Shown here in pieces: positions 1 to 27,336 of a DNA stretch of 64,000 bases. The notes under the pieces were generated by a model. The model was given only the letters and a program-made list of their open reading frames with translations. It did not search any database and had not been told where the DNA came from. The position numbers and the translations under genes were made by a program. This DNA is from Antedon mediterranea (lineage: Eukaryota > Animalia > Echinodermata): NCBI RefSeq assembly GCF_964355755.1, contig NC_092672.1, forward strand, positions 14,446,001 through 14,510,000, read 5' to 3'. Positions within the stretch are counted from its first letter, which is position 1; each line of letters starts with the position of its first letter.

Positions 1-532
1 GACTTTCTGATAGATAACGTGAGTCTACTACACAAACATACCAATGTCAATTGTAGAATAAATACTAGGCTACAGCATAGGCCTATAACCATTTTAGATT
101 ATATATTTTTTAAATCATTTTATTTTCATAACTCTATTATGTAGTAGAGGCCTATCTAATTTACCTTTTTTAGATTCACCCACTTTTATTCACTTCTTTT
201 TTGCATGTTATAATGTTACATAATGTAACATTTATTTTTGGAAACTAAAGTATTTGGAATAAACAATTTGTGTATACCATGTATTGTATAAACAATGTTT
301 GTAATACATTTTCTTCATTTTAATAACATTTGATGATAGCTTAGATTGAGAGAAGTAGGCCTACCTAAATTACGTTACCTACCGGTATGCCAGTATTCGT
401 TGCTTGTATTTCTGTATTTGATTGTAGTTAACGTTTATTGCCTTCCTATTATTGCTATTTTTCCTACTTCAACATAACTTATTTATTTCATTACAGCACT
501 TTTTAATTGATGTACATTTGTTTGTATTAGAC

Positions 533-1291
533 TAGTCCAGATAGTCATATTTCCACTCTAATAAGATGCTGTAGGCATTTCGTGTTAAAAGCAAATAAAC
601 ATGTGTTTTAGGGTAATTTTGGGGTGCTGAATTCAAATCTGCCCAATTTTTAGATCTTCACCCTTAAAATGTGAAAAAAAAAACATGGCGGCTGAAATAG
701 AGTATTTAAAACTCTAATAACAATATATTATTGTTATAGAAACCATTTTAAACCTGATATTCATTTAAGTCAAGTCACAAGACAAAATACATAGGTATAG
801 ACACCATTTTAAACCTGCTATGTTACATCATTTAAGTCAAGTCACAAGACAAAATACATAGGTATAGACACCATTTTAAACCTGCTATGTTACATCATTT
901 AAGTCAAGTCACAAGACAAAATACATAGGTATAGACACCATTTTAAACCTGCTATGTTACATCATTTAAGTCAAGTCACAAGACAAAATACATAGGTATA
1001 GACACCATTTTAAACCTGCTATGTTACATCATTTAAGTCAAGTCACAAGACAAAATACATAGGTATAGACACCATTTTTAACTTGCTATGTTACATAAAA
1101 GTCGAGTTATAAGCCAAAATACGTTTAAAATGTGGCCATCTTGGATTTCAAATTTTAAGGGTAAAGATATGAAAATAAGGCCGGGTAAACAGCAGATTTA
1201 AATTCAGCACCCCGAAATTACCCTAAAACACATTTTTATTCGCTTTTACACGAAATGCCTACAGCATTTCATTTTTCTCAAATCTTGACTA
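533..1291. mobile_element. Non-autonomous TIR DNA transposon (TAGTC termini, Academ-like) containing a 67-bp minisatellite
   Basis: Ends TAGTCCAGAT (533) and ATCTTGACTA (1291). Long subterminal inverted match: GCTGTAGGCATTTCGTGT...TTTAGGGTAATTTTGGGGTGCTGAATT (~568-633) vs AATTCAGCACCCCGAAATTACCCTAAAA...ACACGAAATGCCTACAGC (~1201-1265). TSD ambiguous (gac/gtc, or TA if the ends are 530/1294). Confidence 0.65.
762..1096 (+). repeat. 67-bp tandem repeat, ~5 copies
   Basis: Unit CATTTAAGTCAAGTCACAAGACAAAATACATAGGTATAGACACCATTTTAAACCTGCTATGTTACAT recurs from 762, 829 and onward. Confidence 0.95.
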
Positions 1292-1568
1292 GTCTATATT
1301 TTTATAGTCCTAAAACATTTCGTATATTTTCCAGATTATCGTACCAAATGATACTGATACAACTTACTGGTTTTACCACATGCAACTTCCAAGGCTTGCA
1401 AACGAAAATCATATTATTCGGGTACGAACACTATTTTATGAAATCTATAAAGTTAATGAAATTAATAATAAACGTGTCTTCAGTATAAATAAATAACAAA
1501 ACATCATGTCATCGTTATTGAGGTTTATTAGTTGGAATTTCCTGATTATATATATTATTTCTTTTAAG

Positions 1569-4500
1569 ATTGATCCCGTAATACAACCAGGAAATGAGGG
1601 AATTGTTCACCATTTAATTGTAAAGGAGTGTCATGGACTTGGAAGGATTAATGGCACTGGAAGTCTTAATATAAAAAGTAAAGATATGTATATGTTTAAA
1701 TCCTGTTCCAAACAGATTTATGCATGGTCCGTTGGAGGAGGAGTAAGTCAAACAATAACTACATAAAATTGATTGTTTATACCATCTTTTTTACACACTT
1801 ATTTCATTCATATAAATCATTAATGTGTATCCATTGTCCTATGTTAAAATAATGCCGCGCGGTCTACATAGGCTACATAGAGCAGTCAATATTTATGAAT
1901 GAAACTATATTCAACGCATAAAAAACATTCATAATTTGTTTTATAATACACCTACTATGAATTATATCAACAAACTATGGGCCTAGTCACTCGGCCAGCA
2001 CTCTAGACATCAACTCCTTCAATCATCCACCAATCCATCCACCAACTCATTTAATCGTTCACCGTAATCCATCCATCAACTCCTTCAATCGTTCACCGTA
2101 ATCCATCCATCAACTTTTTCATTCGTCCATCCGTCCATTAACTTTGTCATTCGTCCAACAATCCATTCATTAACTTCGTCATTCGTTTACAAATCCTTTC
2201 ATCAACTTCGTCATTCGTCCATCAATCCATCCATCCATCAACTTCGTCATTCGTCCACCAATCCAATCATTAACTTCGTCATTCGTCCACCAATCCATCC
2301 ATCCATCAACTTCGTCATTCGTCCACCAATCAATCAATCCATCCATCAACTTCGTCATTCGTCCACGAATCCATCCATCCGTTCATCAACTTCGTCATTC
2401 GTCCACCAATCCATCCATCCATCAACTTCGTCATTCGTCCACAAATCCATCAAATTCGTCATTTGTCCACGAATCCATCCATCAACTTTGTCATTCGACC
2501 ACCAATCCATCCATTAACTTCGTCATTCGTCCACCAACTCTGTCATTCGTCCGCCAATCCATCCATCAATTTCGTTATTTGTTCACCAATCCGTTTACCA
2601 ACTTCGTCATTTGTCCACCAATCCATCCATCTACTTCGTCATTCGTATACCAATCCTTCCATCTACTTCGTCATTGGTCTACCAATTCATCCATCTACTT
2701 CGTCATTCGTCCATCAATCCCATCCATCAACTTCGTCATTCGTCCACCAATCCATCCACCAACTTCGTCATTCGTCCACTAATTCATCCATCTACTTCGT
2801 CATTCATTGTTCACCAATCAATCCATCAGTCATTCTTTCACTACTCCATCCATCAGCTCCGTCCTTTATTCACTACTCAACCCATCAGCTCTGTCCTTCG
2901 TTCACTAATCCATCCATCAGCTCCGTCGTCGTTCGTTCACTAAATCTATCTATCAGCTCCGTCCTTCATATACTCCATCCATAAGCTCCGTCCTTCGTTC
3001 ACTAATCTTTCCATCAGCTCCGTCGTTTGTTCACTAAATCTATTCATCAACTCATTCATTCGTAAATAAGTGAATACATCCATTCGTTAATCTATTTATA
3101 GATTATGGTTAATTCTGACATAGGCGAGCACAATGCAAAAAAAACGTTGGTACAAATCTCCGACTTGGATACCTACCTTATCTATCTGAGATGTACCGCG
3201 AAACGTAGATTTGATAACGTTAGTTTTCACATCGACGCTATTGTTCCATATTTCTATCTTAGGAAGATATTATAAAGAGTTTTTTAACAAAATTTATGAT
3301 TTCAACAGTAGATTTCAAACTCAATTTCAATTCTTCACGGGTCAAAGTAATTTCCGAGTTCACCTTGCAACAACCTGGTTTCAACTATTTTTCTCTCTTT
3401 TATACACAAAGGAGCAGTTAAAATAATAGATTTGACCCTAAAGGTGACTGGAAACAGGCACTTTCCATCAATCAATACAGTGTCCCTTTGGAAGAAGGAA
3501 GAAAAAACCGATAGTAGGACTGGAGCTTAGTTGCATAGCCATTTCAGTTTATTTGTTTATTTTAGGAACGGACCGCGCGTGTGTGAAGGTACAGTGGTTA
3601 AAAAATAAAAATTATACTGCAAATTAATAAAGATCAAATTAAATATAGGCCATAAAGAATCGGAATACATTGTGGGAAATAGTATTATAAAATTACATAG
3701 GGAGATTTGATGATAAGACATTTTGTTTAAAATCGAGTGAAATCCCGATAGTTGATTGAGTAAGCTGGAAGGAATAACTGTAGGCTATCTGTGTCCCGTT
3801 AGCGATTTTTTTTTTCGTACATAAGTTGGGGTCCCCCTCATGAAACGTCACAAAATAAACATGAATAATTCATCAGTTAAATATGTTGTTCCGTGTGCAC
3901 CCAAGCGTATAGCAACAAGAAGCGATTACACAACTGCGATACGATACTTTCTACAGTAGGCCTAGGATTCTAAGTCAATTCACGCGATTGCCTTTCGCGC
4001 ACTCTTCTTCACACAAAATGTGTCGAGTCGAGGCTAATCGACAGCTAGGCAAGACATTAAACCAGGGAAGAGTTAAATTACAGTTAAAATTTAACTCTTC
4101 CCTGATTAAACTAAGTAGTAATTCATTGTACATAGCCCAAAGAAAGCTTAGACCCACAAGAATAAAGAATGTGTATAATTTGTGTACTGTATTTTTTTTA
4201 ATTCTGCTATTTTATTATCAAACAATATGCAATGTACTCAAAGGAACTTTAAAAATGCGCGTATATGAACACATGAGATGGGAAGATTAGACCCACGAGA
4301 ATAAAAACTGTATTTTTGTGTAATGTTTATTGTTTAATTTTGCTGACTTATTACTCGGATTGTGTCATACCTATAACACACACACACACAGCTCTACTAG
4401 AATAGACATATGTTTAGAGACTAATAATTAGGCCTAGGCCTAATAGTATTAATAGAAACTATAATTTTAACACGTAATTCTTTAGTAATAAATTATATTA

Positions 4501-7500
4501 AAAACACTATTATAAACTAAAGGCTGATTATTTCGACAATCCACACAAAACGCCGCTATTCTTCTATGAAATCGCACGCCGCAACAACAGCGCGGAGATA
4601 GGCCTAGAATCGTACCGCACTTGTGTAATCACTTCTTGTTGCTATACGCTTGGGTGCACACGGAACAAGAACATTTAACTGATGAATTATTCATGTTTAT
4701 TTTGTGACGTTTCATGAGGGGGTCCCCAACTTATGTACGAAAAAAAAAATCGCGTCCCGTTAGGACCGAGATGTCTGCCCATGTTGCAAGCCGTAATGTC
4801 TTCTTTCTTGGGCCCACTCTATAACGGCAGTTAGTTTCAAAAGATGTTTAAATTAAATAATGTATTAATAATTATTAGGATGGTATTTATTTGAATAAAC
4901 GCCTCTCCAATAAAACATCACTTTGAATAATAATCATTATACTATTTGTAGTAGAATTCATCGCACTGTTATCTACAATTTACCAAGCATTTGTTATTCT
5001 TTTTTACCACTTTTCATATCTATTAGAGGATTTCATTTGATTATAAATGTTACCATAAAATTATTATTAAAACTAAAAAAATTAACATATATCCCTCGAA
5101 TAACCACACCCTCAAATAAACTCCGCCTCTCCAAAGGGCCCTACCAAACAATAAACACTATACTTTAAAATGTTATTAATCATCTAAAACACTGTGAAAC
5201 AGAGTAGTTTAGTTTTACGAATGTCAAGCATTTTCAATAATGGTAACCGACAGAAAACGTACAAGGAGAACATTTTTATCATTCCGAGAACCATCGTCTA
5301 CACTTCCTAGAGGGGGAGCGAGCGAAGTTTAGTGCTAATTACAGTTAGTGCTCAGTCGATATCATCCATTGACTAGTTATATTTTAGCGTGGTTCTTACA
5401 TATTACTATATTTATGCATTTATACATGGTGTCTGCCTTTCTGTTTAAAAGTCTAAAATACCAATCTTGTGTATAGGCATTGACGTTTCCAGAGCATGTG
5501 GGGTATCGGATAGGCGGTGAAAATGAGATAAAGTATTTGCAGTTAAACATACACTACGATAATCCTCAGTTTCTTACAGGTAAGTAGTAAATAAGGTACT
5601 TTAGCCCAAAGTTAACCTTGAGGTATTTCCTGATTACGTAATATCCGCCAGGTGTTTCTAATGAAGGTCGTTCATTTCCTGTTATTGTATTAGTTATGTA
5701 ACTTCCGCCAGGTGTTTCTAAAGAAGGTCGTTTCCGCCAGGTGTTTCTAATGAAGGTCGTTCATTTCCTGTTATTGTATTAGTTATGTAACTTCCGCCAG
5801 GTGTTTCTAATGAAGGTCGTTCTTTTCCTGGTTTCGTACTAGTTATGTAATTTCCGCCAGGTGTTTCTTTGTCTCTTTTTTATTAATTTTTCGGCGTGAG
5901 GTTCTGGTACGTGGTGAGTGACGTCATTACTTTATTTACGATTTAAGACGGTAAAACAAAGTGAAGCGGTTATTGTTGTACTATTCTCCAGTTGTTTTGT
6001 CTATTTTTACGTAGAGTATCTCTTTACAGTATTTCATTATGTCTGGAAGTATATATTTTTCGCAAGGGAGTTGTGTAGATACTGTTATAATAATTAGCGA
6101 TGATGAGGATACTGTTGTTGTTCCAGGCAGTGATATAGATGATTGTTACACGGCGGCCGAAGAGGTTATCCCCGTCGGTATAGAAGAAGGAGTCGAGAGG
6201 AGTAACAGGCCTACAAGTTGTATATTCACGTACGTGGACGAGGTGGAGAGAGAATTTTTGTTGAAAATGGAGCGTTTGGTTAAACAATTGTTTGCTGCTC
6301 AAGTGTTAGCCAAGTGTTGGGTTTTAAGTAAAGCGGCTTGTTATGGTTGTGAATTTGACAGGAGCAGTCAAAAAGATCATGATTTCTGTTGTATGAAGTC
6401 TCTAGAAGAACAGATTGACTATTTTTATCGGGAGGTTCTAGATAAGAAGTATGTTTCAGTCGATACCGTTTACAACGAACTAAATATGCAAGGAGAATAT
6501 TCATTGCCTCGGTATAGACATTTCGTTTATTTTCTTGTCAATACCCTGATTAATTCAGAGGCTATTTTTAAGCTGTTGTGCGAGGATATTTAAATTGTGT
6601 TTCGCACGTGTCACGGAAACGATTGACCGGAAATAGCAATCATTATCTTTTTAATTACTGAACTGGGCTACTTTCCTACTAAGCTGCATATATATCCTGA
6701 TTCAAGCGTAATCGTTCGTTTCACTCTCTGTAACTCTCTACAGTCTATAAACATGAGTTTCAACTGTTTACCTACTCCGAAATTAGCAATTGGTGAGAAA
6801 GCCCGTAGGACTATGAAAAGAGTTATGGGGAGTTCTAATGGTCAAGCTGACGAGTGTAGCAGTTTAAAATTACCAACGGTGGCTTCTACATCAGCGAATA
6901 TAATGGATTCTATAAAATCTTTTAACGGTCAAACTGACGACTGTAAAGGTTTTAAAAAACCAATGATGCCGTCTACTCACCCAAAGATTACCGTAACATC
7001 AACGAATCGGATTTTCTTGTCTGAAAAACGTCATGTGGTGGCTCAGCGATGGGGTGAAGTTGTTTCTGTTTGCCTCAGAGAGTATTACCAGACGGAAGAA
7101 AATGGTGTCTACAAACCTGGTCCTCTAGGTATTAATTTACCCGTTCTGCTGTGGCAAAAACTTTTCAACAATATTGATTTAATTATTCAGGCACTGGAAG
7201 ACTTACAAAGAGACATTAACATGGTGGAGGCAGTAAGAATCCCCATTTCGGACATAATTCATGTGGTAGTTAGTAACTGGAAAGAAGAACAATTTGTGTG
7301 TATTCGCCGCTATTACCAGTCTGAAGAAGGAGGCAAGTTTAAACCCGGTAAAAAAGGTGTAAACCTTCCAAAGAGTCAGTGGTTCAAGATAATTGAAAAA
7401 CACGGTGAAATACAAAAGATGATTGAGGAGGTTGGTAATGATAATGCGGCTACTGTTGACAAAAGCGATAATGGAGGACGTTTATTCAATTCAGAACATC

Positions 7501-10500
7501 AATTGCTACCCCCTGATAAGTTATCGGTGCAAAAGATAATAGGGGAAAATTTAGACTGTGATTACCTTCAACTTCTTGATAAAGGAGCAGCCGATACATT
7601 GTTTAAAAAATGTGAGGAAGAGATTGACTATTTTACCGGAGATCTTGCAAAGGTTAAAGTGTACGGAAAGTGGTTTAATATTCCTAGAAAACAGGTTAGT
7701 TCCATTATGTTTTTATCCGTGGTTTTGTATTAATGACTTGTTAATTACTTGTATATCGTTTCCTTTGTTTTTTCCATAATTTACCGCTGTGTAGCTATAG
7801 GTGTTACTTACTCTTTTTCTGTAAATTATTTTATTTGGGCGTGTTCATTTACGTCTCGTCAAATAATAAATGACTTTCTTTGTATGGTTTCCCCCTCTGC
7901 AGGTTTCGTTCGGCGATTCGGGCTTAACTTACAAATATTCAGGCAATACAGTACCAGCTTTACCGTGGCCACCATTCCTGAAAGATCTCCGCGACCTTTT
8001 AAAATCGGTTACAGGACATTACTTCAATTTTGTTTTGGTCAACCGGTAAATATTCTTGTTTATTATTTTATTCATTTATTTTATTTATTGATTAAAAGGG
8101 TCCATAGTTTACCTCTAAAACGATTGAACACTATCAGTATGATTTCTGCAATTTGTTAGATAAGATTGTTTTAATGGATAATTGGGGTTTTTTTAGTCTC
8201 ATCTTAAAATATTTTATTTTCTATTGTATTTTGTCGTTACTCTATAGATATGCTACTGGAAGTGATTACATTGGCGAACACAAAGATGATGAGAAAGACA
8301 TGAATCACTTTAGTCCAATCGCCTCTGTATCATTGGGGCAGACACGTATGTTTAGATTTCGACATGGTGATGCGCGAGGTAAGAGTCCCAAAAGAATAAT
8401 TGAGCCAGTAACTGTTGATCTTAAACACGGTACATTATTAATGATGAATTATCCCACTAATGAGTACTGGTACCATTCACTGCCTAAAAATCAATCCATC
8501 AAGCTACCAAGAATAAATCTCACGTTTAGAGATATTAAAAGATGAGAGAAATGTTACGCAAACACTACAGTCTTTAATAGTGATTGCAGATCTCAAGAAT
8601 ATCAACTGTTCATGATCTGTTCTCATTTAGTATAGTAGTACCAGTTGAATTATTTTTGTGATGATATTCCTAAAAATGGTTGTATTATTGTATTGATGTT
8701 AATTCACTTAGATCTAGGCCTAATTCCATTGATCGTTAATAATCATGTGATTGTTTGTCATTGCGTGGATAATGATTAACTTTACGAATAATTTCTTAAA
8801 AGTAACTTGTAATGTATTTCTAATTGTTAAATACAATTTTTTATGTTTTTAATAAGTGTGTAAGTTTTTCTTTAAAGCGTTTTAATCGTAATTTCAAGAG
8901 TAATAGGTACTTGTAACGTTTGAAACGGACTGGTAGATTAAACAGAACAAAAACAAAAAAAAAAACCCCGTTATAATAACACTAATAATAGCACATATTT
9001 TCGTACATGTATCAATGATTTATCTACATATGTGTGATTAATATTATTACAATAAAGACCATGTAGATCTACGATATTTTTACTGTAAGTGGTATTGTAA
9101 ATAAAAATTATGAATTCAATCGTGAGAAATGACCGATATCTGTGTATTATTTTATATTACTTTTATCATAATTGCAACAACATAAAAAAACTCAGAAATC
9201 ATAATTATCGAATACAGAAAGACGTTTTGGTTACCAATTGTATTTCTTGACACTTAACAGATTTTAACAGAAAACAAGACCTTCAACCGGAGCCAAAAAT
9301 GGAAATTTGTTTACGTGCAGGTTATTGCCATTAGATATTCTTAGAACTACTTTGGTTTTTATAAATATTGTCACTTTTTTTCTACACGTTTATCTACCGA
9401 GATTTTGTTTTTCTTTTTATGAATCTTCCGTTGTTCATAAGCATTATTAATTTGTACAGGCCTTGTTCTTCGCTTTGCAGGCTAAATCTTATAACGGCAT
9501 AGGCCTACATTTTAACGGTTCTTTGTAAATATCCTCTTATTGATTGTTACCTATAGTTCTCTGAATGTTTTAATTTACCGTAGATGATGAAAAAATCCCT
9601 TAATCTAGCACCATTTAAAAAAAAAAAAAAAAAAAAGGTTCCGCAGTAAATGGTTTATTTTTTATGGTATTGATGGAATCATCGAGGCACAATATTAGGC
9701 TGAAAAACATGACGTCACTATTTTAAACTGTTTATCATACAAGAACAATTAACCAATCACAAAACTGAGCTACTGATTTGCGTAGAAGTTTCTGGAAATG
9801 ACAAATTAAGGAAACACGTACACATTAATAAATATATATTAATTTTTATATAAATAATAGACAAAACAAAAGGAAATACACCAAACAAATCATTTTCGTT
9901 ATGAATTTATAATAACTTTAAATTTTGTCCATCACAGGAGACGCGTTTAGCGTTTTCCAATTGTAAAACAGTTTCGCATTGCGTCGCAACACATGCACAT
10001 ACTGCAAGTACTGTACCGTACTGTAACAAGTCTACTGATATGTATTTTGTTGGTCACTCATCATTTTAGCCAACACATTATTTAACTCATCAGGTGTAAT
10101 ATCTTTTCACAAAACCTTTATATCTTTACTTTTTCTTGACAACTCATAACAAACAAGAATAGTACTCTGAATGAGTGTGGGAGAGGTGTGTGGGAGTCCC
10201 ATTCAACTAAACCTTGCCAATTTGTACTCGACCTACGATAAAACCATTTTTTAAAAGTCAACATAGCGACGCGAGAAAAAATTGATAATAGGGATAAAAA
10301 GTTTTTCATGCATTGTTATACAGTAATCTATGTTTTTCGGTGTTTACACCATCTCATTGTTTATAATTACGTTTGTTAATATCGATAGTGTTTCTCTAGC
10401 AGAGTTATATTACTTGTTTATACTCGTATAGTTTGAAGTCCTCCATGTTGTTCGTATATTTTGTAAAAAGTGTACTTATGATTACTTTTAAAAACCAACT

Positions 10501-13500
10501 CATTTTATTTGCATTTTATCTACACCTCATGGTTAAAATGTGTTGTTTTTCATAGAGTGTGATGATGCTTAAAACGTTATACTAGTATAACCACCAAAAC
10601 GGTTTATTATCTGTAGGAAATCATCAATTGTAACATGCGGTAAACAATACAAATTAGTTTCACAAATTATTAAAAAATAGCACAATTGTTACAAATGCAT
10701 TTAAGAAAATAAAGGTGTACAGATTTTATTTCGAAAAAGTGTAGGCCTAGACCTACAAAGATAATTTTACATAAAGTGTACAGAATAAATTAACAAAAAA
10801 AAAAAAGGTCACACATACATTAAACTAATTCTTATAAAAGTGTACAGTGTACTTTGGTTATCAGGTATATCAACTTTAATATTTTAAGTATAGGGCCTAT
10901 TTGTGGCCAACACACGGTCCCTTTTAATTGGGGGTAGAGGTCTTTTGCCGTTCGTAATTCAAACTGTTCGTAAAATTGAAGTTAATATTCTGAGATTAGG
11001 CCTATAGCCTATGATTGCAGCTTATACTAGTCAACGGTCTAAAAGAGCTGTAGTGCAGGAGGCGAAACATAAAAGTTCATTAATAAACAGTATATTATAT
11101 TATAACGATAAAGAAACGAATGTACGATACACCAATATAGCAATACAATAACTGATTAACTGAAAACTTGAAGTCTACTGTATTCCTACAATCATTCAAG
11201 TAGACATTGTTTGCTGAGTGTATGGTACTTTCTCCAAAGAGAATTCGAACGATGTGCTTTCGGACGTGTTTCTACGATTATCAGAACGGGTCGATAATGA
11301 AAAAAAAAAAAACCCAAAACAAACAAACTGTCTACTAACTCCCAAAAAAAAAAATCAATACCTATTAAATAAACTGAACCTACCCCACTAAATAATCTCT
11401 TCCATACATCAAAATCGACCGAAAATGATCTGGACATTGAAAAGTGGACACGGTCGTCTGTTCTTCTTTTCTGTTTCCACGGCTTGGGACGACATCCCTG
11501 TTAGTGATGTACGGTAGCCATGCGGTCTACACACTTATGATGACCACATCGCATAACATGTTCAGGGAACTTATTTTTCAACTCTCTGATACAATGTTTA
11601 AATACAAGTAGACTGGAAACCATTTAGGAACAGGGGGTTTCTAATAATAAAAGTTGTTTAAAACTTTAGTTATTGTCAAGGGGAATTGTTCAAGACTTGG
11701 AGTAAAAATGGTCAAGACCGGGGGAAAATGGTCAAGACAGGAAGAAAATTAAATTTCACCATTTTATAAGTTTATAGTCATTTATTGTGTTAAAATTCAT
11801 TTATTATTAGACCTGTATACGTATTCAATAACAAAAAATAACCTTGTTACATTAATAACATATCTTTAGTGGTTAAGGTAATATATTATTTCTCTGTATA
11901 CTGACGTCACAAATATAGATAAAGAGAGACTGTAACTAAATGTTTATTACTTATTAGGGTTACAGGGAGAGTTCCATGCAACATTAAAAGGTCAATTAAT
12001 GAGCCACCCAACTTAATTAAGTACCGTTACTTAACAAATGTGCTCAAACTCAATAAGGGTTACAAATCTACAAGAGACTGTAACTAAATGTTTATTACTT
12101 ATTAGGGTTACAGGGAGAGTTCCATGCAACATTAAAAGGTCAATTAATGAGCCACCCAACTTAATTAAGTACCGTTACTTAACAAATGTGCTCAAACTCA
12201 ATAAGGGTTACAAATCTACAAAAGAGGACATTTTATTTTTATACCAGGGTTAAACATTAAAAGGTCAATTACTTGAACTCTGAACATGGAAAAAATACTT
12301 GCGTCAATTGACACTTGAACTTGACCTCTACACAAGGACGAATAGACTGTGTCAATTAACCATGACCTCTGGTCCCAAAAGCATGGGGGTTTCAGTTTTC
12401 GACTTCGTCGAAATTTGAGAGCCCCCCAATAAAACGGCTGACCAGAGGTCATGGTTAATTGACACAGTCTATTCGTCCTTGTGTAGAGGTCAAGTTCAAG
12501 TGTCAATTGACGCAAGTATTTTTTCCATGTTCAGAGTTCAAGTAATTGACCTTTTAATGTTTAACCCTGGTATAAAAATAAAATGTCCTCTTTTGTAGAT
12601 TTGTAACCCTTATTGAGTTTGAGCACATTTGTTAAGTAACGGTACTTAATTAAGTTGGGTGGCTCATTAATTGACCTTTTAATGTTGCATGGAACTCTCC
12701 CTGTAACCCTAATAAGTAATAAACATTTAGTTACAGTCTCTTGTAGATTTGTAACCCTTATTGAGTTTGAGCACATTTGTTAAGTAACGGTACTTAATTA
12801 AGTTGGGTGGCTCATTAATTGACCTTTTAATGTTGCATGGAACTCTCCCTGTAACCCTAATAAGTAATAAACATTTAGTTACAGTCTCTCTTTATCTATA
12901 TTTGTGACGTCAGTATACAGAGAAATAATATATTACCTTAACCACTAAAGATATGTTATTAATGTAACAAGGTTATTTTTTGTTATTGAATACGTATACA
13001 GGTCTAATAATAAATGAATTTTAACACAATAAATGACTATAAACTTATAAAATGGTGAAATTTAATTTTCTTCCTGTCTTGACCATTTTCCCCCGGTCTT
13101 GACCATTTTTACTCCAAGTCTTGAACAATTCCCCTTGACAATAACTAAAGTTTTAAACAACTTTTATTATTAGAAACCCCCTGTTCCTAAATGGTTTCCA
13201 GTCTACTTGTATTTAAACATTGTATCAGAGAGTTGAAAAATAAGTTCCCTGAACATGTTATGCGATGTGGTCATCATAAGTGTGTAGACCGCATGGCTAC
13301 CGTACATCACTAACAGGGATGTCGTCCCAAGCCGTGGAAACAGAAAAGAAGAACAGACGACCGTGTCCACTTTTCAATGTCCAGATCATTTTCGGTCGAT
13401 TTTGATGTATGGAAGAGATTATTTAGTGGGGTAGGTTCAGTTTATTTAATAGGTATTGATTTTTTTTTTTGGGAGTTAGTAGACAGTTTGTTTGTTTTGG

Positions 13501-16500
13501 GTTTTTTTTTTTTTCATTATCGACCCGTTCTGATAATCGTAGAAACACGTCCGAAAGCACATCGTTCGAATTCTCTTTGGAGAAAGTACCATACACTCAG
13601 CAAACAATGTCTACTTGAATGATTGTAGGAATACAGTAGACTTCAAGTTTTCAGTTAATCAGTTATTGTATTGCTATATTGGTGTATCGTACATTCGTTT
13701 CTTTATCGTTATAATATAATATACTGTTTATTAATGAACTTTTATGTTTCGCCTCCTGCACTACAGCTCTTTTAGACCGTTGACTAGTATAAGCTGCAAT
13801 CATAGGCTATAGGCCTAATCTCAGAATATTAACTTCAATTTTACGAACAGTTTGAATTACGAACGGCAAAAGACCTCTACCCCCAATTAAAAGGGACCGT
13901 GTGTTGGCCACAAATAGGCCCTATACTTAAAATATTAAAGTTGATATACCTGATAACCAAAGTACACTGTACACTTTTATAAGAATTAGTTTAATGTATG
14001 TGTGACCTTTTTTTTTTTTGTTAATTTATTCTGTACACTTTATGTAAAATTATCTTTGTAGGTCTAGGCCTACACTTTTTCGAAATAAAATCTGTACACC
14101 TTTATTTTCTTAAATGCATTTGTAACAATTGTGCTATTTTTTAATAATTTGTGAAACTAATTTGTATTGTTTACCGCATGTTACAATTGATGATTTCCTA
14201 CAGATAATAAACCGTTTTGGTGGTTATACTAGTATAACGTTTTAAGCATCATCACACTCTATGAAAAACAACACATTTTAACCATGAGGTGTAGATAAAA
14301 TGCAAATAAAATGAGTTGGTTTTTAAAAGTAATCATAAGTACACTTTTTACAAAATATACGAACAACATGGAGGACTTCAAACTATACGAGTATAAACAA
14401 GTAATATAACTCTGCTAGAGAAACACTATCGATATTAACAAACGTAATTATAAACAATGAGATGGTGTAAACACCGAAAAACATAGATTACTGTATAACA
14501 ATGCATGAAAAACTTTTTATCCCTATTATCAATTTTTTCTCGCGTCGCTATGTTGACTTTTAAAAAATGGTTTTATCGTAGGTCGAGTACAAATTGGCAA
14601 GGTTTAGTTGAATGGGACTCCCACACACCTCTCCCACACTCATTCAGAGTACTATTCTTGTTTGTTATGAGTTGTCAAGAAAAAGTAAAGATATAAAGGT
14701 TTTGTGAAAAGATATTACACCTGATGAGTTAAATAATGTGTTGGCTAAAATGATGAGTGACCAACAAAATACATATCAGTAGACTTGTTACAGTACGGTA
14801 CAGTACTTGCAGTATGTGCATGTGTTGCGACGCAATGCGAAACTGTTTTACAATTGGAAAACGCTAAACGCGTCTCCTGTGATGGACAAAATTTAAAGTT
14901 ATTATAAATTCATAACGAAAATGATTTGTTTGGTGTATTTCCTTTTGTTTTGTCTATTATTTATATAAAAATTAATATATATTTATTAATGTGTACGTGT
15001 TTCCTTAATTTGTCATTTCCAGAAACTTCTACGCAAATCAGTAGCTCAGTTTTGTGATTGGTTAATTGTTCTTGTATGATAAACAGTTTAAAATAGTGAC
15101 GTCATGTTTTTCAGCCTAATATTGTGCCTCGATGATTCCATCAATACCATAAAAAATAAACCATTTACTGCGGAACCTTTTTTTTTTTTTTTTTTTTAAA
15201 TGGTGCTAGATTAAGGGATTTTTTCATCATCTACGGTAAATTAAAACATTCAGAGAACTATAGGTAACAATCAATAAGAGGATATTTACAAAGAACCGTT
15301 AAAATGTAGGCCTATGCCGTTATAAGATTTAGCCTGCAAAGCGAAGAACAAGGCCTGTACAAATTAATAATGCTTATGAACAACGGAAGATTCATAAAAA
15401 GAAAAACAAAATCTCGGTAGATAAACGTGTAGAAAAAAAGTGACAATATTTATAAAAACCAAAGTAGTTCTAAGAATATCTAATGGCAATAACCTGCACG
15501 TAAACAAATTTCCATTTTTGGCTCCGGTTGAAGGTCTTGTTTTCTGTTAAAATCTGTTAAGTGTCAAGAAATACAATTGGTAACCAAAACGTCTTTCTGT
15601 ATTCGATAATTATGATTTCTGAGTTTTTTTATGTTGTTGCAATTATGATAAAAGTAATATAAAATAATACACAGATATCGGTCATTTCTCACGATTGAAT
15701 TCATAATTTTTATTTACAATACCACTTACAGTAAAAATATCGTAGATCTACATGGTCTTTATTGTAATAATATTAATCACACATATGTAGATAAATCATT
15801 GATACATGTACGAAAATATGTGCTATTATTAGTGTTATTATAACGGGGTTTTTTTTTTTGTTTTTGTTCTGTTTAATCTACCAGTCCGTTTCAAACGTTA
15901 CAAGTACCTATTACTCTTGAAATTACGATTAAAACGCTTTAAAGAAAAACTTACACACTTATTAAAAACATAAAAAATTGTATTTAACAATTAGAAATAC
16001 ATTACAAGTTACTTTTAAGAAATTATTCGTAAAGTTAATCATTATCCACGCAATGACAAACAATCACATGATTATTAACGATCAATGGAATTAGGCCTAG
16101 ATCTAAGTGAATTAACATCAATACAATAATACAACCATTTTTAGGAATATCATCACAAAAATAATTCAACTGGTACTACTATACTAAATGAGAACAGATC
16201 ATGAACAGTTGATATTCTTGAGATCTGCAATCACTATTAAAGACTGTAGTGTTTGCGTAACATTTCTCTCATCTTTTAATATCTCTAAACGTGAGATTTA
16301 TTCTTGGTAGCTTGATGGATTGATTTTTAGGCAGTGAATGGTACCAGTACTCATTAGTGGGATAATTCATCATTAATAATGTACCGTGTTTAAGATCAAC
16401 AGTTACTGGCTCAATTATTCTTTTGGGACTCTTACCTCGCGCATCACCATGTCGAAATCTAAACATACGTGTCTGCCCCAATGATACAGAGGCGATTGGA

Positions 16501-19500
16501 CTAAAGTGATTCATGTCTTTCTCATCATCTTTGTGTTCGCCAATGTAATCACTTCCAGTAGCATATCTATAGAGTAACGACAAAATACAATAGAAAATAA
16601 AATATTTTAAGATGAGACTAAAAAAACCCCAATTATCCATTAAAACAATCTTATCTAACAAATTGCAGAAATCATACTGATAGTGTTCAATCGTTTTAGA
16701 GGTAAACTATGGACCCTTTTAATCAATAAATAAAATAAATGAATAAAATAATAAACAAGAATATTTACCGGTTGACCAAAACAAAATTGAAGTAATGTCC
16801 TGTAACCGATTTTAAAAGGTCGCGGAGATCTTTCAGGAATGGTGGCCACGGTAAAGCTGGTACTGTATTGCCTGAATATTTGTAAGTTAAGCCCGAATCG
16901 CCGAACGAAACCTGCAGAGGGGGAAACCATACAAAGAAAGTCATTTATTATTTGACGAGACGTAAATGAACACGCCCAAATAAAATAATTTACAGAAAAA
17001 GAGTAAGTAACACCTATAGCTACACAGCGGTAAATTATGGAAAAAACAAAGGAAACGATATACAAGTAATTAACAAGTCATTAATACAAAACCACGGATA
17101 AAAACATAATGGAACTAACCTGTTTTCTAGGAATATTAAACCACTTTCCGTACACTTTAACCTTTGCAAGATCTCCGGTAAAATAGTCAATCTCTTCCTC
17201 ACATTTTTTAAACAATGTATCGGCTGCTCCTTTATCAAGAAGTTGAAGGTAATCACAGTCTAAATTTTCCCCTATTATCTTTTGCACCGATAACTTATCA
17301 GGGGGTAGCAATTGATGTTCTGAATTGAATAAACGTCCTCCATTATCGCTTTTGTCAACAGTAGCCGCATTATCATTACCAACCTCCTCAATCATCTTTT
17401 GTATTTCACCGTGTTTTTCAATTATCTTGAACCACTGACTCTTTGGAAGGTTTACACCTTTTTTACCGGGTTTAAACTTGCCTCCTTCTTCAGACTGGTA
17501 ATAGCGGCGAATACACACAAATTGTTCTTCTTTCCAGTTACTAACTACCACATGAATTATGTCCGAAATGGGGATTCTTACTGCCTCCACCATGTTAATG
17601 TCTCTTTGTAAGTCTTCCAGTGCCTGAATAATTAAATCAATATTGTTGAAAAGTTTTTGCCACAGCAGAACGGGTAAATTAATACCTAGAGGACCAGGTT
17701 TGTAGACACCATTTTCTTCCGTCTGGTAATACTCTCTGAGGCAAACAGAAACAACTTCACCCCATCGCTGAGCCACCACATGACGTTTTTCAGACAAGAA
17801 AATCCGATTCGTTGATGTTACGGTAATCTTTGGGTGAGTAGACGGCATCATTGGTTTTTTAAAACCTTTACAGTCGTCAGTTTGACCGTTAAAAGATTTT
17901 ATAGAATCCATTATATTCGCTGATGTAGAAGCCACCGTTGGTAATTTTAAACTGCTACACTCGTCAGCTTGACCATTAGAACTCCCCATAACTCTTTTCA
18001 TAGTCCTACGGGCTTTCTCACCAATTGCTAATTTCGGAGTAGGTAAACAGTTGAAACTCATGTTTATAGACTGTAGAGAGTTACAGAGAGTGAAACGAAC
18101 GATTACGCTTGAATCAGGATATATATGCAGCTTAGTAGGAAAGTAGCCCAGTTCAGTAATTAAAAAGATAATGATTGCTATTTCCGGTCAATCGTTTCCG
18201 TGACACGTGCGAAACACAATTTAAATATCCTCGCACAATTAACAGCTTAAAAATAGCCTCTGAATTAATCAGGGTATTGACAAGAAAATAAACGAAATGT
18301 CTATACCGAGGCAATGAATATTCTCCTTGCATATTTAGTTCGTTGTAAACGGTATCGACTGAAACATACTTCTTATCTAGAACCTCCCGATAAAAATAGT
18401 CAATCTGTTCTTCTAGAGACTTCATACAACAGAAATCATGATCTTTTTGACTGCTCCTGTCAAATTCACAACCATAACAAGCCGCTTTACTTAAAACCCA
18501 ACACTTGGCTAACACTTGAGCAGCAAACAATTGTTTAACCAAACGCTCCATTTTCAACAAAAATTCTCTCTCCACCTCGTCCACGTACGTGAATATACAA
18601 CTTGTAGGCCTGTTACTCCTCTCGACTCCTTCTTCTATACCGACGGGGATAACCTCTTCGGCCGCCGTGTAACAATCATCTATATCACTGCCTGGAACAA
18701 CAACAGTATCCTCATCATCGCTAATTATTATAACAGTATCTACACAACTCCCTTGCGAAAAATATATACTTCCAGACATAATGAAATACTGTAAAGAGAT
18801 ACTCTACGTAAAAATAGACAAAACAACTGGAGAATAGTACAACAATAACCGCTTCACTTTGTTTTACCGTCTTAAATCGTAAATAAAGTAATGACGTCAC
18901 TCACCACGTACCAGAACCTCACGCCGAAAAATTAATAAAAAAGAGACAAAGAAACACCTGGCGGAAATTACATAACTAGTACGAAACCAGGAAAAGAACG
19001 ACCTTCATTAGAAACACCTGGCGGAAGTTACATAACTAATACAATAACAGGAAATGAACGACCTTCATTAGAAACACCTGGCGGAAACGACCTTCTTTAG
19101 AAACACCTGGCGGAAGTTACATAACTAATACAATAACAGGAAATGAACGACCTTCATTAGAAACACCTGGCGGATATTACGTAATCAGGAAATACCTCAA
19201 GGTTAACTTTGGGCTAAAGTACCTTATTTACTACTCAGGTAGGCTAACTAAATGTTTCCTTAATCAAAAGTGTAGTTTATGAGTGGTATACAGCGAATAA
19301 GCTACCGAATATCACAAGCTGCAGTATATATATATCTATATTATAAGTGAGAGAGTTTGTACGTCTGTTTGTCTGTTTGTTTGTTTGTTCGTTATACAAA
19401 TTTTTGTTACTGCATGTAACCTTACATATGGGGTACCAAAATGACCGTAATTGTACCGGGAAGGTTCTAAACTAGGGACCAAGTTGGTCCAAGTTAGGGA

Positions 19501-22500: not shown

Positions 22501-25500
22501 TTCAAAATACAACACTATATAAATAAAAAATAATGAGATGAATCTAATAATGGACAACCGTAAGATATTAGTCAATACCTTCATTGGTAAAGGTTATTGG
22601 CGGCTCTATCGATTAACAATTTGATATTGTTATTAAACATGTTAATACATACGTTGTGCAAATACATTTAAATTGAAGACTGTCTTATTATTTCCTGTTA
22701 TCTCTCACAATATAATATATAGTTTATGTAGATGTTATAAGTTTATCAGCAAATTTGAATTACACGTTGTGAAAAAATAGTCAACATTTTGGTAACTTAT
22801 AGAGTGTAGGCCTAATATTTGTCTTTTTGATAGCCTGCTTTAAAATATTATTATATCATTTTTTGTAGTTTAAATAATATGAACTTATTGAGGGTTAGAT
22901 CATAGTTGAGCCTAAAGAAACACAATGAAAATATATATATATTAGATTAGCGTTAATTGTTAGGTTATTATTGATAATCAGGTTAGTTAGATCACGTCAT
23001 GGCTAAAATTAGATTCTCTATTTTTCTTAAACTACAATCTTATGAGAAATCAGATCTAAATTAACAACACTAAAATGATATTCACTTTTTACAGCAATTG
23101 CTATGCGCCTAACACACTATCGCAATGGAAAATATATCGGCGAAATTTCACGAGATAAAACATATGACTTTAATTTACAAGAATTTCGATACCTAAAAGA
23201 CGAGTGGATTGTCAAACCGGTAAGAATCACTTTATTTTAAATTCACATTTCAAAAATAAAGTTTAGTATTTATAGATTTTTTTCCGATAACATATTTTAA
23301 AAGTTATACTGTTTTATATTCATTTGTTTCAAAACATATTATAGGGAGATGATCTACTAGTTGAATGTGTATACAAGACGATGGATAGAGAAAAGGTTAC
23401 ATTTGTAAGTAGGCCTACTTATTATTAACAATATTCCTAATGGTGTAAATTATTTGTGTATATTAAACTAAAACGTTACTACGGCAACGGTAATATTTTG
23501 TTCGGAATGGAGGCTAGCGATAGTTTCTCAGAGCGCCGGAACGAATCCGGTCACGATGTGAAAGTTTGAACTTTATACATGCTATTCAGACCATTAAACC
23601 AAAGCTGTATTTTAAAGTAAAATTCAACACAAACATTTAAGTAAATAAAGTATTAATTATTATTACGAAGTAACGAATACAAATTGAAAACCACATACTT
23701 AAATCTTGATTAAGCTTAGTATATGTCACTTTTTTCCCTTCACTACTAACTCCGTAGCAACTGTATTGCAGTTTTGAAAATGTATTGCTCTGTTCGATAT
23801 TTTATTAAATTGTTTTTCAATATAATATTATTTTTCAAGGGAGGACTTTCGTCGAGAGATGAAATGTGCTCGGCGTTTATATTTTACTATCCTAAAGTAA
23901 ACGCTGGCAATTGCTACAGCGTTCCGCAACAAAAGAACCTTCATCTGAACCTTGATAATTCAAAGTAAGTTACGGTAAATTATTGGTTTTGTTGAGGTCC
24001 GGTATTCAATGTGGGTGTCGTGTAACTCCATTCCATGACGCTCATTCTGCTGTACCACTGTGGGGTTATATCAATAAAGCATAGGAATTTAGGACCAGGA
24101 ATTACAGTACCCTTTTCAACATTTTGTTTCGCTTTCCGTAATCATTTTATTGTTTATTATTTAATATTAATTCTATAATCATATAGAACTTCAACTCAGT
24201 TAAAACAACTTTTATGTATCTATCTTAAAATTGTACATTTATATTTTAATCACATTTAGTTCTAATGTCCCTAATTAAATATAGGCCCACTCTGAATCTC
24301 CTCTTAAATAGGAACTTATGCAGATTGAAAATGTCCTTGACAACACTGTCCCCAAATTATTGAATAGGTCGGAACCCTCTGGCAAATTATTGATAGATAT
24401 TGAATCGCAAAAGAGTCAGAACAACTGTCCATTACATTCTCCTCCGTGATAAGTGGGCACAGTAGCCTAAGATGCACGTAGAAGCACAAACTTCAGATAT
24501 AGGAACAAAGATAAATCTGATCTATAAAAATGTATAAATACATATAAGTATAGTGGTAATATAGCTTGGTTAATAGCTCAACAACATACAGCTTCTTACG
24601 TAAGGCGATGTTTGGAATTCGAAAAAGCTGATGCGGTCCTTACCTTCCACAATTGTATATGTAATCTACGGAACAATCTTGCCTATGGATGGCAATTTTT
24701 GTTTAAAATCTGGAATTTATAAAGGAACCGCACCTTCTTTCTTTGTCAACATATAGGCTACTCGTATGAATGGATGGAATATTTTATTTACAGTATAAAA
24801 ATGTCATTGGCCAAATAAACTAAAACGTCAGGTAAACCACCACCACTAGTAAGTAAGTGTAGGCCTATTATAATAATTACTCACAGCAGAATATTATGTA
24901 ATCTCTAATTTTTTTTACAATTATGTAGAGATGTACGTGAATCAATAGAAAGCATAGAATGGACAGATGAAAAAAGAAATGTTATCAGAAACTGGTGGTA
25001 TGATACACCCAGAATGTCACGGTGTACAAGCAATTTCCTTGAGGTAAGATATTATGGTATTACGATAATAGTGAATTTAAATAGGCTAAGTCGAAGTGAT
25101 ATGTTTAGTGAAAATTAATTCTTAATAAATTGTGCTGTGTTCTTTTGAAAGGGGAAATATAAAAACAATGTAGGCCTATATTGAAAGTTTTTTCGCCACT
25201 CTTAATAAACCCTTTTCTTTTGATACATTGAGTTCCATTTTTATCTCCAACTTGTATCTTTAATGTCAGTTAGGCCTATTAGGCCTACAAAAAAGAAATA
25301 TTGATTTAATAATGTATTTCTCTTTGATTTTAGGGATATAAAAATTATTATGAAGAAACAAGTTTGAAAGAGATCATTGCCTTACAAAATGGATCAGTTG
25401 AGGAGAGTAACAGTAATTGTTCAAGTTACGAAGACCGTTCAACAAGTCAGGGAAGAGTGAATCTCACTGTACCGAAATTAAATACAGTCAACTCTCCCAA

Positions 25501-25591
25501 TACCGGACACCCTTGGGCGGGCATATATTTTCCGGTTTTTCGAAAGTCCGGTTTCCTGAAAACATTTTTAAAGTCATCACGTTGTCACTGA
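1569..25591 (+). CDS. MOXD1: DBH-like monooxygenase (MOXD1-like copper type II monooxygenase), 3' part, 9 exons in window; last exon interrupted by a MITE
   Basis: GT-AG exons with consistent phases: 1569-1742 (IDPVIQPGNEGIVHHLIVKEC...YAWSVGGG), 5477-5579 (ALTFPEHVGYRIGGENEIKYLQLNIHYDNP), 21619-21785 (IRDSSGVRIYYTPTLRQYD...IPPREEAF), 22385-22442 (IFAVSFHAHLA), 23095-23219 (RNGKYIGEISRDKTYDFNLQE), 23345-23404 (GDDLLVECVYKT), 23840-23964 (GGLSSRDEMCSAFIFYYP), 24929-25043, 25334-25591 (current stop; ancestral stop 26829). CuH ligands (HH...H) and CuM ligands (HxH...M) are present. N-terminal exons lie upstream of the window. Confidence 0.9.
2005..3060 (+). repeat. Degenerate minisatellite/low-complexity array (~28-36-bp unit CCATCCATCAACTTCGTCATTCGTCCACCAAT)
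   Basis: Dozens of visible copies with variable numbers of (CCAT) units. It explains the spurious ORFs at 2463-2984, 2579-2782 and 2611-2943. Confidence 0.9.
3802..4753. mobile_element. Non-autonomous Mutator/MULE-like element, ~130-bp TIRs, 9-bp TSD
   Basis: TSD GTCCCGTTA at 3793-3801 and 4754-4762. TIR GCGATTTTTTTTTTCGTACATAAGTTGGGG...GCAACAAGAAG is mirrored at ~4632-4753. Confidence 0.88.
5644..5868 (+). repeat. Subterminal direct repeats of the palindromic element, left end (5 x TCCGCCAGGTGTTTCT, ~60-bp period)
   Basis: Core motif at 5644, 5704, 5733, 5793 and 5853. Confidence 0.92.
6039..6593 (+). CDS. Element-encoded 184-aa protein: acidic N-terminus with SIM-like VIIISDDED, and a CxxC-x5-SQ-x2-H-x2-C putative Zn-binding motif
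   Basis: ATG-initiated, intronless ORF with coding-like composition. The CYGCEFDRSSQKDHDFCC motif resembles, from my recollection, small accessory proteins of Polintons/adintoviruses. Mirrored at 18153-18779. Confidence 0.7.
   Translation: MSGSIYFSQGSCVDTVIIISDDEDTVVVPGSDIDDCYTAAEEVIPVGIEEGVERSNRPTSCIFTYVDEVEREFLLKMERLVKQLFAAQVLAKCWVLSKAACYGCEFDRSSQKDHDFCCMKSLEEQIDYFYREVLDKKYVSVDTVYNELNMQGEYSLPRYRHFVYFLVNTLINSEAIFKLLCEDI
6753..8545 (+). CDS. ALKBH2: Fusion of two tandem PC4 (ssDNA-binding) domains with an ALKBH2-like Fe(II)/2-oxoglutarate DNA dioxygenase, 3 exons, ~460 aa (left arm copy)
   Basis: Exons 6753-7694, 7903-8045 and 8248-8545 join in frame via GT-AG (CAG|GTTAGT..TGCAG; CCG|GTAAAT..TATAG). 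PC4 repeats: VSVCLREYYQTEENGVYKPGPLGINLPVLLWQKL and FVCIRRYYQSEEGGKFKPGKKGVNLPKSQWFKI. AlkB part: VYGKWFNIPRKQ|VSFGDSGLTYKYSG...FNFVLVNR|YATGSDYIGEHKDDE...IASVSLG...WYHSLP...RINLTFR, collinear with vertebrate ALKBH2, with HxD...H and RxxxxxR intact. Confidence 0.92.
11925..12220 (+). repeat. 148-bp tandem duplication next to the central hairpin (left arm)
   Basis: AGAGACTGTAACTAAATGTTTATTAC...GGGTTACAAATCTACA at 11925-12072 and 12073-12220. A partial third copy (ACATTAAAAGGTCAATTA) follows at ~12254. Confidence 0.92.
12375..12439. other. Central spacer of the giant palindrome: imperfect stem-loop
   Basis: Perfect arms stop at ...CATGACCTCTGGTC (12374) and resume at GACCAGAGGTCATG (12440). 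The spacer contains TTTCGAC-TTC-GTCGAAA (12397-12413), extended by GGGGGTTTCAG/TTGAGAGCCCCC pairing with G:T pairs and a bulge. Confidence 0.9.
12594..12889 (-). repeat. 148-bp tandem duplication (right arm mirror)
   Basis: Reverse complement of 11925-12220. Confidence 0.9.
16269..18061 (-). CDS. ALKBH2: Tandem PC4 - ALKBH2-like fusion, 3 exons (right arm copy)
   Basis: Mirror of 6753-8545. Exons 18061-17120, 16911-16769 and 16566-16269; ORF-track translations are identical to the left copy. Confidence 0.92.
18153..18779 (-). CDS. Right-arm copy of the acidic CxxC-H-C protein, 208 aa (C-terminus frameshifted by a 4-bp indel)
   Basis: Identical to 6039-6593 up to ...AIFKLL. Four extra bases at 18237-18240 (AATT) change the tail from CEDI* to IVRGYLNC...LFNY*. 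Confidence 0.68.
   Translation of the reverse strand: MSGSIYFSQGSCVDTVIIISDDEDTVVVPGSDIDDCYTAAEEVIPVGIEEGVERSNRPTSCIFTYVDEVEREFLLKMERLVKQLFAAQVLAKCWVLSKAACYGCEFDRSSQKDHDFCCMKSLEEQIDYFYREVLDKKYVSVDTVYNELNMQGEYSLPRYRHFVYFLVNTLINSEAIFKLLIVRGYLNCVSHVSRKRLTGNSNHYLFNY
18950..19174 (-). repeat. Subterminal direct repeats, right end (5 x AGAAACACCTGGCGGA)
   Basis: Mirror of 5644-5868. Confidence 0.92.
19550..19880 (-). mobile_element. RTE-clade LINE 3' fragment
   Basis: Minus-strand translation near 19640-19780 gives ...YGHIIRLPDDTPIKQ...KVKRPVGRPRNNWMNQIKKDL, typical of the C-terminus of RTE-type ORF2. Confidence 0.65.
19890..20199 (+). mobile_element. tRNA-derived SINE with a Deu/Nin-like central domain
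   Basis: A-box TGGCCGAGCGGTTAAG and B-box GGTTCGAGGC. Core CGGATAAGGACTATAAACCG...AAAGAACCTAGTACATCTTTCGAGACGAGTAGGGGGTTACCCCGGTGT resembles the Deu domain. Short repeat tail (TAAAGA). The 3' half recurs inverted at ~45510-45620. Confidence 0.75.
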
Positions 25592-26792: not shown

Positions 26793-27336
26793 TATAATAC
26801 TCTTTGCATTCCTTTTTCTTGTATTTTAAACATGTATTCCCTCCAATCAAAAGACTTTTTATGCTGTACCATGTTTATAATGTAAAGTGCCGCCGAAATG
26901 AGCGCTATAAGTGTTAATGTATGTTATGTTTTGCGGAAAATGAATCAAACTGGGCTTGATTTGATATTCTTGTTGTGTATAAAGGATATATACATTCTAT
27001 ACTGGAACATGATGTTGCTGTGTGGAACCCGTCATCTTGAAACCTTCAGGGATAGTTTTTTATACAAAGGATCGTCTTTGCTCAATGCATTACCTTTCGA
27101 AATCCAAAACTCAACATCATTTAATATTTTTAAAGTTACAACAAAAAAATATCTCACCCCTATTCCTTTTGAGGGGGGGGGGGGGGTGTTCTATTTTTCG
27201 TTTTTGTATCGTTCCCGTTTTTTCATGCATGTCAGCCTCGGCTGTTTTGATTCACCTTTATTAAACTAAGATTAATAAAAAAAATTAAAAACCTTTTACC
27301 GGTCTTAGACCAATGTCTGTTATCCCTTACTAAGGT

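Follow-up and report, generated by a model that had tools for sequence, protein, structure and literature searches.

Mavericks (Polintons, adintoviruses) are virus-like transposons for which (AGT)2//(ACT)2 is the commonest end motif and (AG)3//(CT)3 an alternative; they have target-site duplications (TSDs) of 6 bp on either side, bear terminal inverted repeats (TIRs) of 46-1,447 bp and range in size from 12.7 to 24.6 kb (Barreat and Katzourakis 2021, PMC8097293). In nematodes, they have been described as carriers of intron-bearing host cargo (wasp, krma) located beside a TIR (bioRxiv 10.1101/2022.07.12.499685), and a single-stranded, racket-like intermediate is part of the standard Polinton model (PMC4196379). 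Members of the AlkB family, in turn, have been captured by plant RNA viruses (PMC2553587) and are carried by nucleocytoplasmic large DNA viruses (NCLDVs; PMC10598087). We analysed a stretch of 64,000 nt from the feather star Antedon mediterranea (NC_092672.1; hereafter the window, whose positions serve as coordinates) that contains an element with Maverick-type ends, folded into a near-perfect palindrome and carrying in each arm a gene in which two PC4 domains are joined to an ALKBH2-type demethylase. Each ingredient has a precedent, and the whole is most likely a lineage-specific chimeric repair gene in a non-autonomous, fold-back Maverick.

The initial annotation of this DNA had proposed a three-exon gene of about 460 amino acids with two PC4 domains and a complete ALKBH2-type domain, and this model was borne out; the larger palindrome around it went unmentioned there. 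All exon boundaries are GT-AG, and the spliced product is a single open frame of 460 aa; two GT-AG combinations exist near these sites, and only one of them (6753-7694/7903-8045/8248-8545) is in frame. The product is identical over 460/460 residues to the A. mediterranea RefSeq protein XP_071943874.1 (cluster P0010), an independent gene model, yet one that the same genome may underlie. In the list of open reading frames (ORFs), the gene is indeed split, appearing as entries of 326 aa and 123 aa. Pfam recognises two stretches of PC4 (PF02229) in exon 1 (E 1.8e-22; 79 bits versus a cut-off of 25), and 2OG-FeII_Oxy_2 in exon 3 (E 1.7e-19) and, below the cut-off when taken alone, in exon 2 (E 0.012); with the full 460-aa protein, both families score above their cut-offs. 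An Atlas search with the full protein returned AlkB clusters only, at 0.86.

The termini of the element correspond to the (AGT)2//(ACT)2 motif, and the hexamer CAGGTA stands on either side as a 6-bp TSD (the chance of identical flanking hexamers is ~5e-4). Unlike typical Maverick TIRs, the inverted arms are 6.8 kb each and make up nearly the whole element. Neither pPolB nor a retroviral-like integrase is present in it (six-frame list; frame scan from the gene to the centre), nor are genes for capsid, ATPase or protease (six-frame list, Pfam, frame scan). In the segment of ~3.4 kb between the fusion gene and the centre, the longest stop-free frame is 102 aa, and none of the 11 frames tested (of 25 listed) matches Pfam; a scan of 5400-12600 against Rfam gave no match. 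A protein-primed polymerase is absent from the entire 64-kb window, the only other large ORFs of which are the gag-pol of a Ty3/Gypsy retrotransposon. Because it lacks pPolB and integrase, the element is not an autonomous member of the group; judged from its sequence, it would work like a non-autonomous Maverick. The earlier proposal that the gene is mobile-element cargo is upheld by its presence twice in one palindromic element with Maverick-type ends and a TSD, together with a structural match to an adintovirus protein (see below), whereas the element encodes no polymerase of its own for the protein-primed replication invoked in that annotation.

Sequencing runs provide further information on the boundaries. 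In runs X1 and X6, contigs of the single-copy left flank match only as far as 5582. The X1 contig ends there; the X6 contig continues into other sequence, which was not taken as proof of an empty site, and none of the contigs listed demonstrates such a site or the centre. The centre, the right arm and the right flank are covered in 30/30 bins both in X1 and in X6, which represents a second organism. In X1, the depth is 48 in the flank versus 192 to 9,261 in element bins, although read depth in these runs does not equal copy number. The mirror copy of ORF1 encodes 208 rather than 184 aa because of four extra bases near 18237, which are missing from a contig of depth 769 in run X1. The two copies of the fusion gene converge on the centre, and read-through transcripts would form long double-stranded RNA; AATAAA sites occur at 9051, 9100 and 9827.

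The AlkB domain appears to be catalytically complete. Its closest family in the PDB is human ALKBH2 (3rzg and others; E 6e-72), with ALKBH3 at 7e-23, and, as first described, the iron ligands H373-K-D375 and H438 and the motif RINLTFR are present; both arginines and the R198/G204/K205 loop of the human enzyme are likewise retained. Specificity for double-stranded (dsDNA) or single-stranded DNA (ssDNA) is determined by the F1 hairpin (PMC2965238). In the fusion protein, this hairpin contains V301, V303, Y304 and G305 (V99, V101, F102 and G103 in human) and no acidic residues; Tyr occupies the wedge position in 43/94 homologs, and F102 and F124 of the human protein are both replaced by Tyr. As the hairpin is still hydrophobic, the enzyme has not been converted to the ALKBH3 type, which runs counter to the idea of a catalytic domain retooled for ssDNA. 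The RKK DNA-binding loop is replaced by NQS. At this position, three basic residues are found in 93/127 sequences but 0-1 in host crinoid proteins, and RKK is lost in every crinoid ALKBH2 sequence compared; because the host proteins also lack it, the loss predates the capture, and its interpretation as an adaptation of the cargo to ssDNA was rejected. By homology, the fusion enzyme would demethylate 1-methyladenine (1-meA) and 3-methylcytosine (3-meC). As to strand preference, human ABH2 has been reported to be about equally active on ssDNA and dsDNA (PMC2965238), so that retargeting to ssDNA may not be needed, whereas another report states that it binds ssDNA poorly (PMC9370705).

The tandem PC4 module was predicted to fold with high confidence (predicted local distance difference test, pLDDT, 95.8; predicted template modelling score, pTM, 0.89) from an alignment of 74 rows, 65 of which span both repeats; the fold of the full-length protein (13-row alignment, pLDDT 32) was not used. 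In the predicted structure, the two repeats pair within one chain, in agreement with the single-chain pseudo-dimer suggested from the sequence. Among 48,161 PDB chains, the best match over the whole length is Pur-alpha repeats I-II (Z 11.7, root-mean-square deviation 3.4, 127 aligned residues), which form an intramolecular type I PC4-like domain (PMC7549692). Among viral structures, the top match (E 5e-7, TMq 0.78, 165 columns; one of three at E<=0.001) is MOSUB of a Branchiostoma lancelet adintovirus. MOSUB is not found in the main text of PMC8502044; in Fig. S2, the text layer contains the label a single time, next to 'ITR', and the contig is not assignable. Outside crinoids, the top named tandem-PC4 proteins come from green algae and an oomycete, and a tree of PC4 repeats (375 rows, 68 columns; 218/370 inner branches open) is too weak to place the crinoid subfamily. 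From its homology, the module would be expected to bind ssDNA.

The two halves of the protein seem to have different origins. In a tree of the AlkB domain restricted to ALKBH2 (32 rows), crinoids form a clade (100/100), within which Antedon host and cargo sequences group together (95/95) with Anneissia outside. The eight cargo rows form one clade (100/98), the position of which as sister to a pair of 268-aa Antedon host proteins is not firm (89/84); the stem branches of the cargo and of the host paralog are equal (0.11 each). The statement that cellular ALKBH2 has no PC4 domain holds for the host models of Antedon, of which there are at least three (P0006/P0021, P0179). PC4 is carried by 3 of the best 120 of 336 AlkB hits (lengths of 253-805 aa only), all from Antedon, and an AlkB domain by none of 148 new PC4 hits (from the best 150 of 213). 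Anneissia possesses the same PC4 subfamily without AlkB, both as a tandem (P0023, from a contig of 1 kb) and singly (P0064, P0076). In particular, the shared E-N-D-N-G motif of this subfamily stops at residue 241 of the fusion, and the host-like pre-catalytic segment starts there; the fusion junction thus lies inside exon 1. Taken together, the tree and the junction indicate that the AlkB domain was likely captured from a feather-star host. Moreover, a block of 12 residues whose end coincides exactly with the intron 1 acceptor is missing from one host isoform model, and one Mytilus model repeats a block beginning at the intron 2 acceptor; these hints from protein models suggest that both introns came from the host as well. 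Model P0004 contains both PC4 repeats and ends a few residues past the junction; it could stem from the breakage of a copy or predate the capture.

The fusion is not confined to this locus. Seventeen related RefSeq models lie on contigs of seven different sizes, and all three domains are complete in seven of them. P0010, P0014 and P0015 each comprise two identical entries, as expected of two arms, and contigs of runs X5 and X6, from two organisms, span 7346-7617 and bridge the fusion junction. Coding variants were counted in the listed part of the data (40/324 and 40/171 rows). In the AlkB part, 8/9 are synonymous versus 25% expected (P ~1e-4, a small sample), which supports purifying selection on this domain. 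The synonymous excess, together with near-identity between copies, fits constraint on the AlkB domain or its spread by recombination; this signal is no evidence of a role for the PC4 part.

We lean, by a modest degree, towards a mechanism in which a fold-back Maverick derivative is copied and inserted by a helper and carries a repair enzyme tethered by its PC4 pseudo-dimer to unwound element DNA. The ends, the TSD, the palindrome and the doubled gene are observed features. The tree and the mapping of the junction suggest that an intronless Maverick PC4 gene recombined at the DNA level with an Antedon ALKBH2 paralog, in which event both ALKBH2 introns would have been kept and the host N-terminus lost. 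The PC4 repeats are predicted to pair within one chain. A displaced strand of the element would fold back on itself to give a 6.8-kb hairpin, the single open end of which bears an origin and is usable by a helper polymerase and integrase. The tethered demethylase would then remove 1-meA and 3-meC from unwound element DNA. The PCNA-binding motif of ABH2 is N-terminal, and protein-primed polymerases are not known to need PCNA. ABH2 is recruited to replication foci via PCNA (PMC2965238), and it is proposed that PC4 substitutes for this targeting, the enzyme repairing both element and helper genomes, single- or double-stranded. As the strand of a full palindrome would pair along its entire length, a single-stranded substrate would not be required, and some of the benefit may go to the helper. 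A more far-reaching version, which we regard as tentative and rather doubtful, envisages a family of snap-back (hairpin-closed) satellite Mavericks, integrated in the germline and spreading a doubled self-repair gene: a viral single-chain PC4 clamp would direct the ALKBH2 taken from the host to the genomes of element and helper, where 3-meC that blocks replication or is made by methyltransferases would be erased. Such satellites could be likened to copy-back defective viral genomes, from which they would differ in being germline-integrated, and the integrated palindrome would preserve, as if frozen, the fold-back intermediate of replication that has long been proposed for Polintons.

Several observations weigh against the helper-dependent, tethered-repair mechanism. 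The palindromic strand would re-pair quickly, leaving little ssDNA in the element itself. Scans of viral contigs and metagenomes revealed no related loci, no autonomous partner and no locus with the crinoid PC4 subfamily beside Maverick core genes. The link to MOSUB is by fold only, at 21% identity, and cellular tandem-PC4 proteins are common, with two or more repeats in 135/151 proteins retrieved by the tandem query. Ten of the 17 RefSeq models are incomplete. The variants counted may share a branch, and of those listed for PC4 only 5/10 are synonymous (P 0.08), so that for this part selection is not significant; between two subfamilies, PC4 differs at 23/145 residues and AlkB at 4/206 (P 1.7e-6). 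Contigs spliced at junction 1 (7694/7903) occur in X5 and X9. That of X9 carries, on its upstream side, a loose end matching host ALKBH2, and that of X5 is not assignable: X5, tentatively an RNA run, also has host-gene contigs, and it covers introns and termini as DNA would. A joined junction 2 (8045/8248) is not among the contigs listed. The spliced joint was rejected as proof of element expression in view of the host-type upstream end in X9.

Some of these data would be expected if PC4 were a mere carrier, providing a promoter, a start codon and nuclear import, or if the whole fusion were a recent passenger, with any AlkB constraint due to a recent capture, to homogenisation or to an advantage that extra repair genes give the host. 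The non-synonymous half of the PC4 variants and the incomplete models agree with this explanation, as does an AlkB domain that is nearly identical in copies whose PC4 differs by ~15%, a pattern expected if AlkB spread by recombination. However, AlkB shows a synonymous excess, its stem branch equals that of the host paralog, both PC4 repeats still pass Pfam and are predicted to fold confidently, and the fusion is present in two organisms; we regard this explanation as unlikely. It is also conceivable that the enzyme serves mainly in counter-defence, removing 3-meC formed as a by-product of host silencing by DNA methyltransferases (DNMTs), or another host mark. DNMTs reportedly produce 3-meC, and ALKB2 is said to co-occur with them. 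The retained F1 hairpin is compatible with dsDNA, and an orchid Gypsy lineage has captured an active AlkB-family N6-methyladenosine (m6A) demethylase, which its authors read as counter-surveillance (PMC9289625). On the other hand, ALKBH2 is described as acting on damage in the form of 1-meA, 3-meC and etheno adducts (PMC2965238), not on 5-methylcytosine, and the explanation overlaps chemically with the tethered-repair mechanism; on balance, it seems quite unlikely.

The nature of the element itself could also be questioned. If the palindrome were an assembly artefact, produced when chimeric fold-back reads were taken from an element that is in fact shorter, each element would have a real but single fusion gene. 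The arms are identical over 6.8 kb save 4 nt, no listed contig spans the centre, and the depth of the centre bin alone is no proof of a multi-copy loop. Nevertheless, different unique flanks are joined by the 6-bp TSD, the arms do differ by 4 nt, identical protein pairs exist for P0010, P0014 and P0015, and coverage of the arm is complete as far as the centre bin (30/30 bins) in X1 and X6, which makes an artefact highly improbable. Of still lower probability is the view that another class of TIR transposon with 6-bp TSDs captured a cellular PC4 gene and ALKBH2. It would accommodate the lack of any Maverick core gene and the unresolved PC4 repeat tree; the (AGT)2//(ACT)2 ends, the intronless PC4 part and the adintovirus MOSUB as top match speak against it.

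The element and the window have further features (Table 1). ORF1 has no match in Pfam, 0/56 candidates match in a homologue search, and its matches in the Atlas search are all under 0.9. Its Cys/His motif weakly matches the tail, C-terminal to tandem PC4, of a sea-cucumber WW-PC4-PC4 protein (P0149/P0292); this is 1/148 PC4 hits, with E 0.001-0.01 in a set of 7 sequences, and from it the motif and tandem PC4 may travel together in echinoderm elements. At 48201-56660 lies a Ty3/Gypsy long terminal repeat (LTR) retrotransposon with 576-bp LTRs that are 100% identical, TG...CA ends, a 4-bp TSD (GTAG) and open frames for gag (49508-50473) and pol (to 55179); the identical LTRs, the TSD and the open frames point to a recent insertion. 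A direct duplication of 1,317 bp (25483-26799 / 29030-30346, 100% identical by BLAST) could be either a segmental duplication or the LTR pair of an element without coding capacity. Several small elements with inverted repeats are found at 586-1248, 3802-4753, 46315-47113 and 60332-63194, some of them containing tandem arrays, and further tandem arrays at 1999-3070 (~32 bp) and 41797-42098 (~27 bp).

Table 1. Features of the palindromic element and its fusion gene (window positions)
Feature	Position	Strand	Remarks
Element, 13,653-bp near-perfect palindrome	5583..19235	.	arm comparison; ends AGTAGT...ACTACT
Palindrome arms	5583-12374 and 12440-19235		6.8 kb each; identical save one 4-nt indel
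Left TSD CAGGTA	5577..5582	+	matches hexamer at 19236-19241
Right TSD CAGGTA	19236..19241	+	
Subterminal 60/89-bp direct repeats	5621..5868	+	mirrored about 18937-19197
ORF1, 184 aa, Cys/His motif	6039..6593	+	
Exon 1	6753..7694	+	N-terminal region, PC4 a and b, fusion junction, AlkB start with F1 hairpin
PC4 repeat a	about 6993-7205	+	exon 1
PC4 repeat b	about 7218-7433	+	exon 1
Fusion junction	about 7467-7481	+	exon 1
F1 hairpin	7650-7673	+	exon 1
Exon 2, ALKBH2 nucleotide-recognition lid	7903..8045	+	
Exon 3 with stop	8248..8545	+	H373-K-D375 (8279-8287), H438, R450/R456 (8510-8530)
Non-coding arm segment	8546..11924	.	high depth in both organisms sampled; mirror segment covered
Two 148-bp tandem repeats	11925..12220	.	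mirrored at 12589-12884
65-nt centre, imperfect hairpin closing the palindrome	12375..12439	.	fold without shuffle control
Second, identical fusion-gene copy	16269..18061	-	exons 17120-18061, 16769-16911, 16269-16566
Mirror ORF1, 208 aa	18153..18779	-	4 extra bases near 18237

The locus offers a datable case in which a virus-like transposon appears to have built a new two-part protein, one part from an accessory gene of its own and the other from a DNA-repair gene of the host; the junction can be seen, as can the donor paralogs and, in another crinoid, a relative without the fusion. Should the enzyme act as proposed, alkylation damage would exert selection on Maverick replication, and the protein would be a natural single-chain hybrid of an ssDNA binder and ALKBH2 that can be assayed directly. 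A giant palindrome with intact ends and a TSD likewise provides a test of Polinton replication and of the shedding of defective forms. Neither a PC4-ALKBH2 fusion nor a Maverick that carries AlkB or is fully palindromic came to light in a literature search with most subscription papers outside its scope. Kapitonov and Jurka reportedly described, in 2006, Polintons of the zebrafish that are non-autonomous and have very long inverted repeats, and the palindrome may therefore have a precedent.

Compared with described systems, the element resembles Maverick/Polinton (adintovirus) genomes in its ends, its 6-bp TSD, a size within their range and accessory genes adjoining the termini (PMC8097293), but differs in lacking pPolB, integrase, ATPase, protease and capsid, in its 6.8-kb arms and in its intron-bearing gene. 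Like wasp and krma of nematode Mavericks, this gene has introns and lies close to a TIR; those, however, are proteases and kinases in largely complete elements (bioRxiv 10.1101/2022.07.12.499685), whereas here a repair enzyme-PC4 fusion resides in a non-autonomous palindrome. MOSUB (A0A5H3CIS2) shares the predicted tandem PC4 fold but, with only 203 aa and 21% identity, has no room for an AlkB domain. The repeats also differ from the type I PC4-like domains of Pur-alpha I-II, Whirly and MRP, as these are described (PMC7549692), in being sequence-level homologs of PC4/Sub1 and in being joined to an enzyme. Relative to human ALKBH2/ABH2, the iron and 2-oxoglutarate ligands, the F1 hairpin and the R198/G204/K205 loop are shared, whereas RKK is NQS, F102 and F124 are Tyr and the N-terminus is replaced by tandem PC4. 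An orchid Ty3/Gypsy lineage (PMC9289625), plant RNA viruses (PMC2553587) and NCLDVs (PMC10598087) are likewise selfish elements with an AlkB-family demethylase; theirs are RNA demethylases or stand-alone viral enzymes and, in the extracts of their descriptions, are not fused to PC4.

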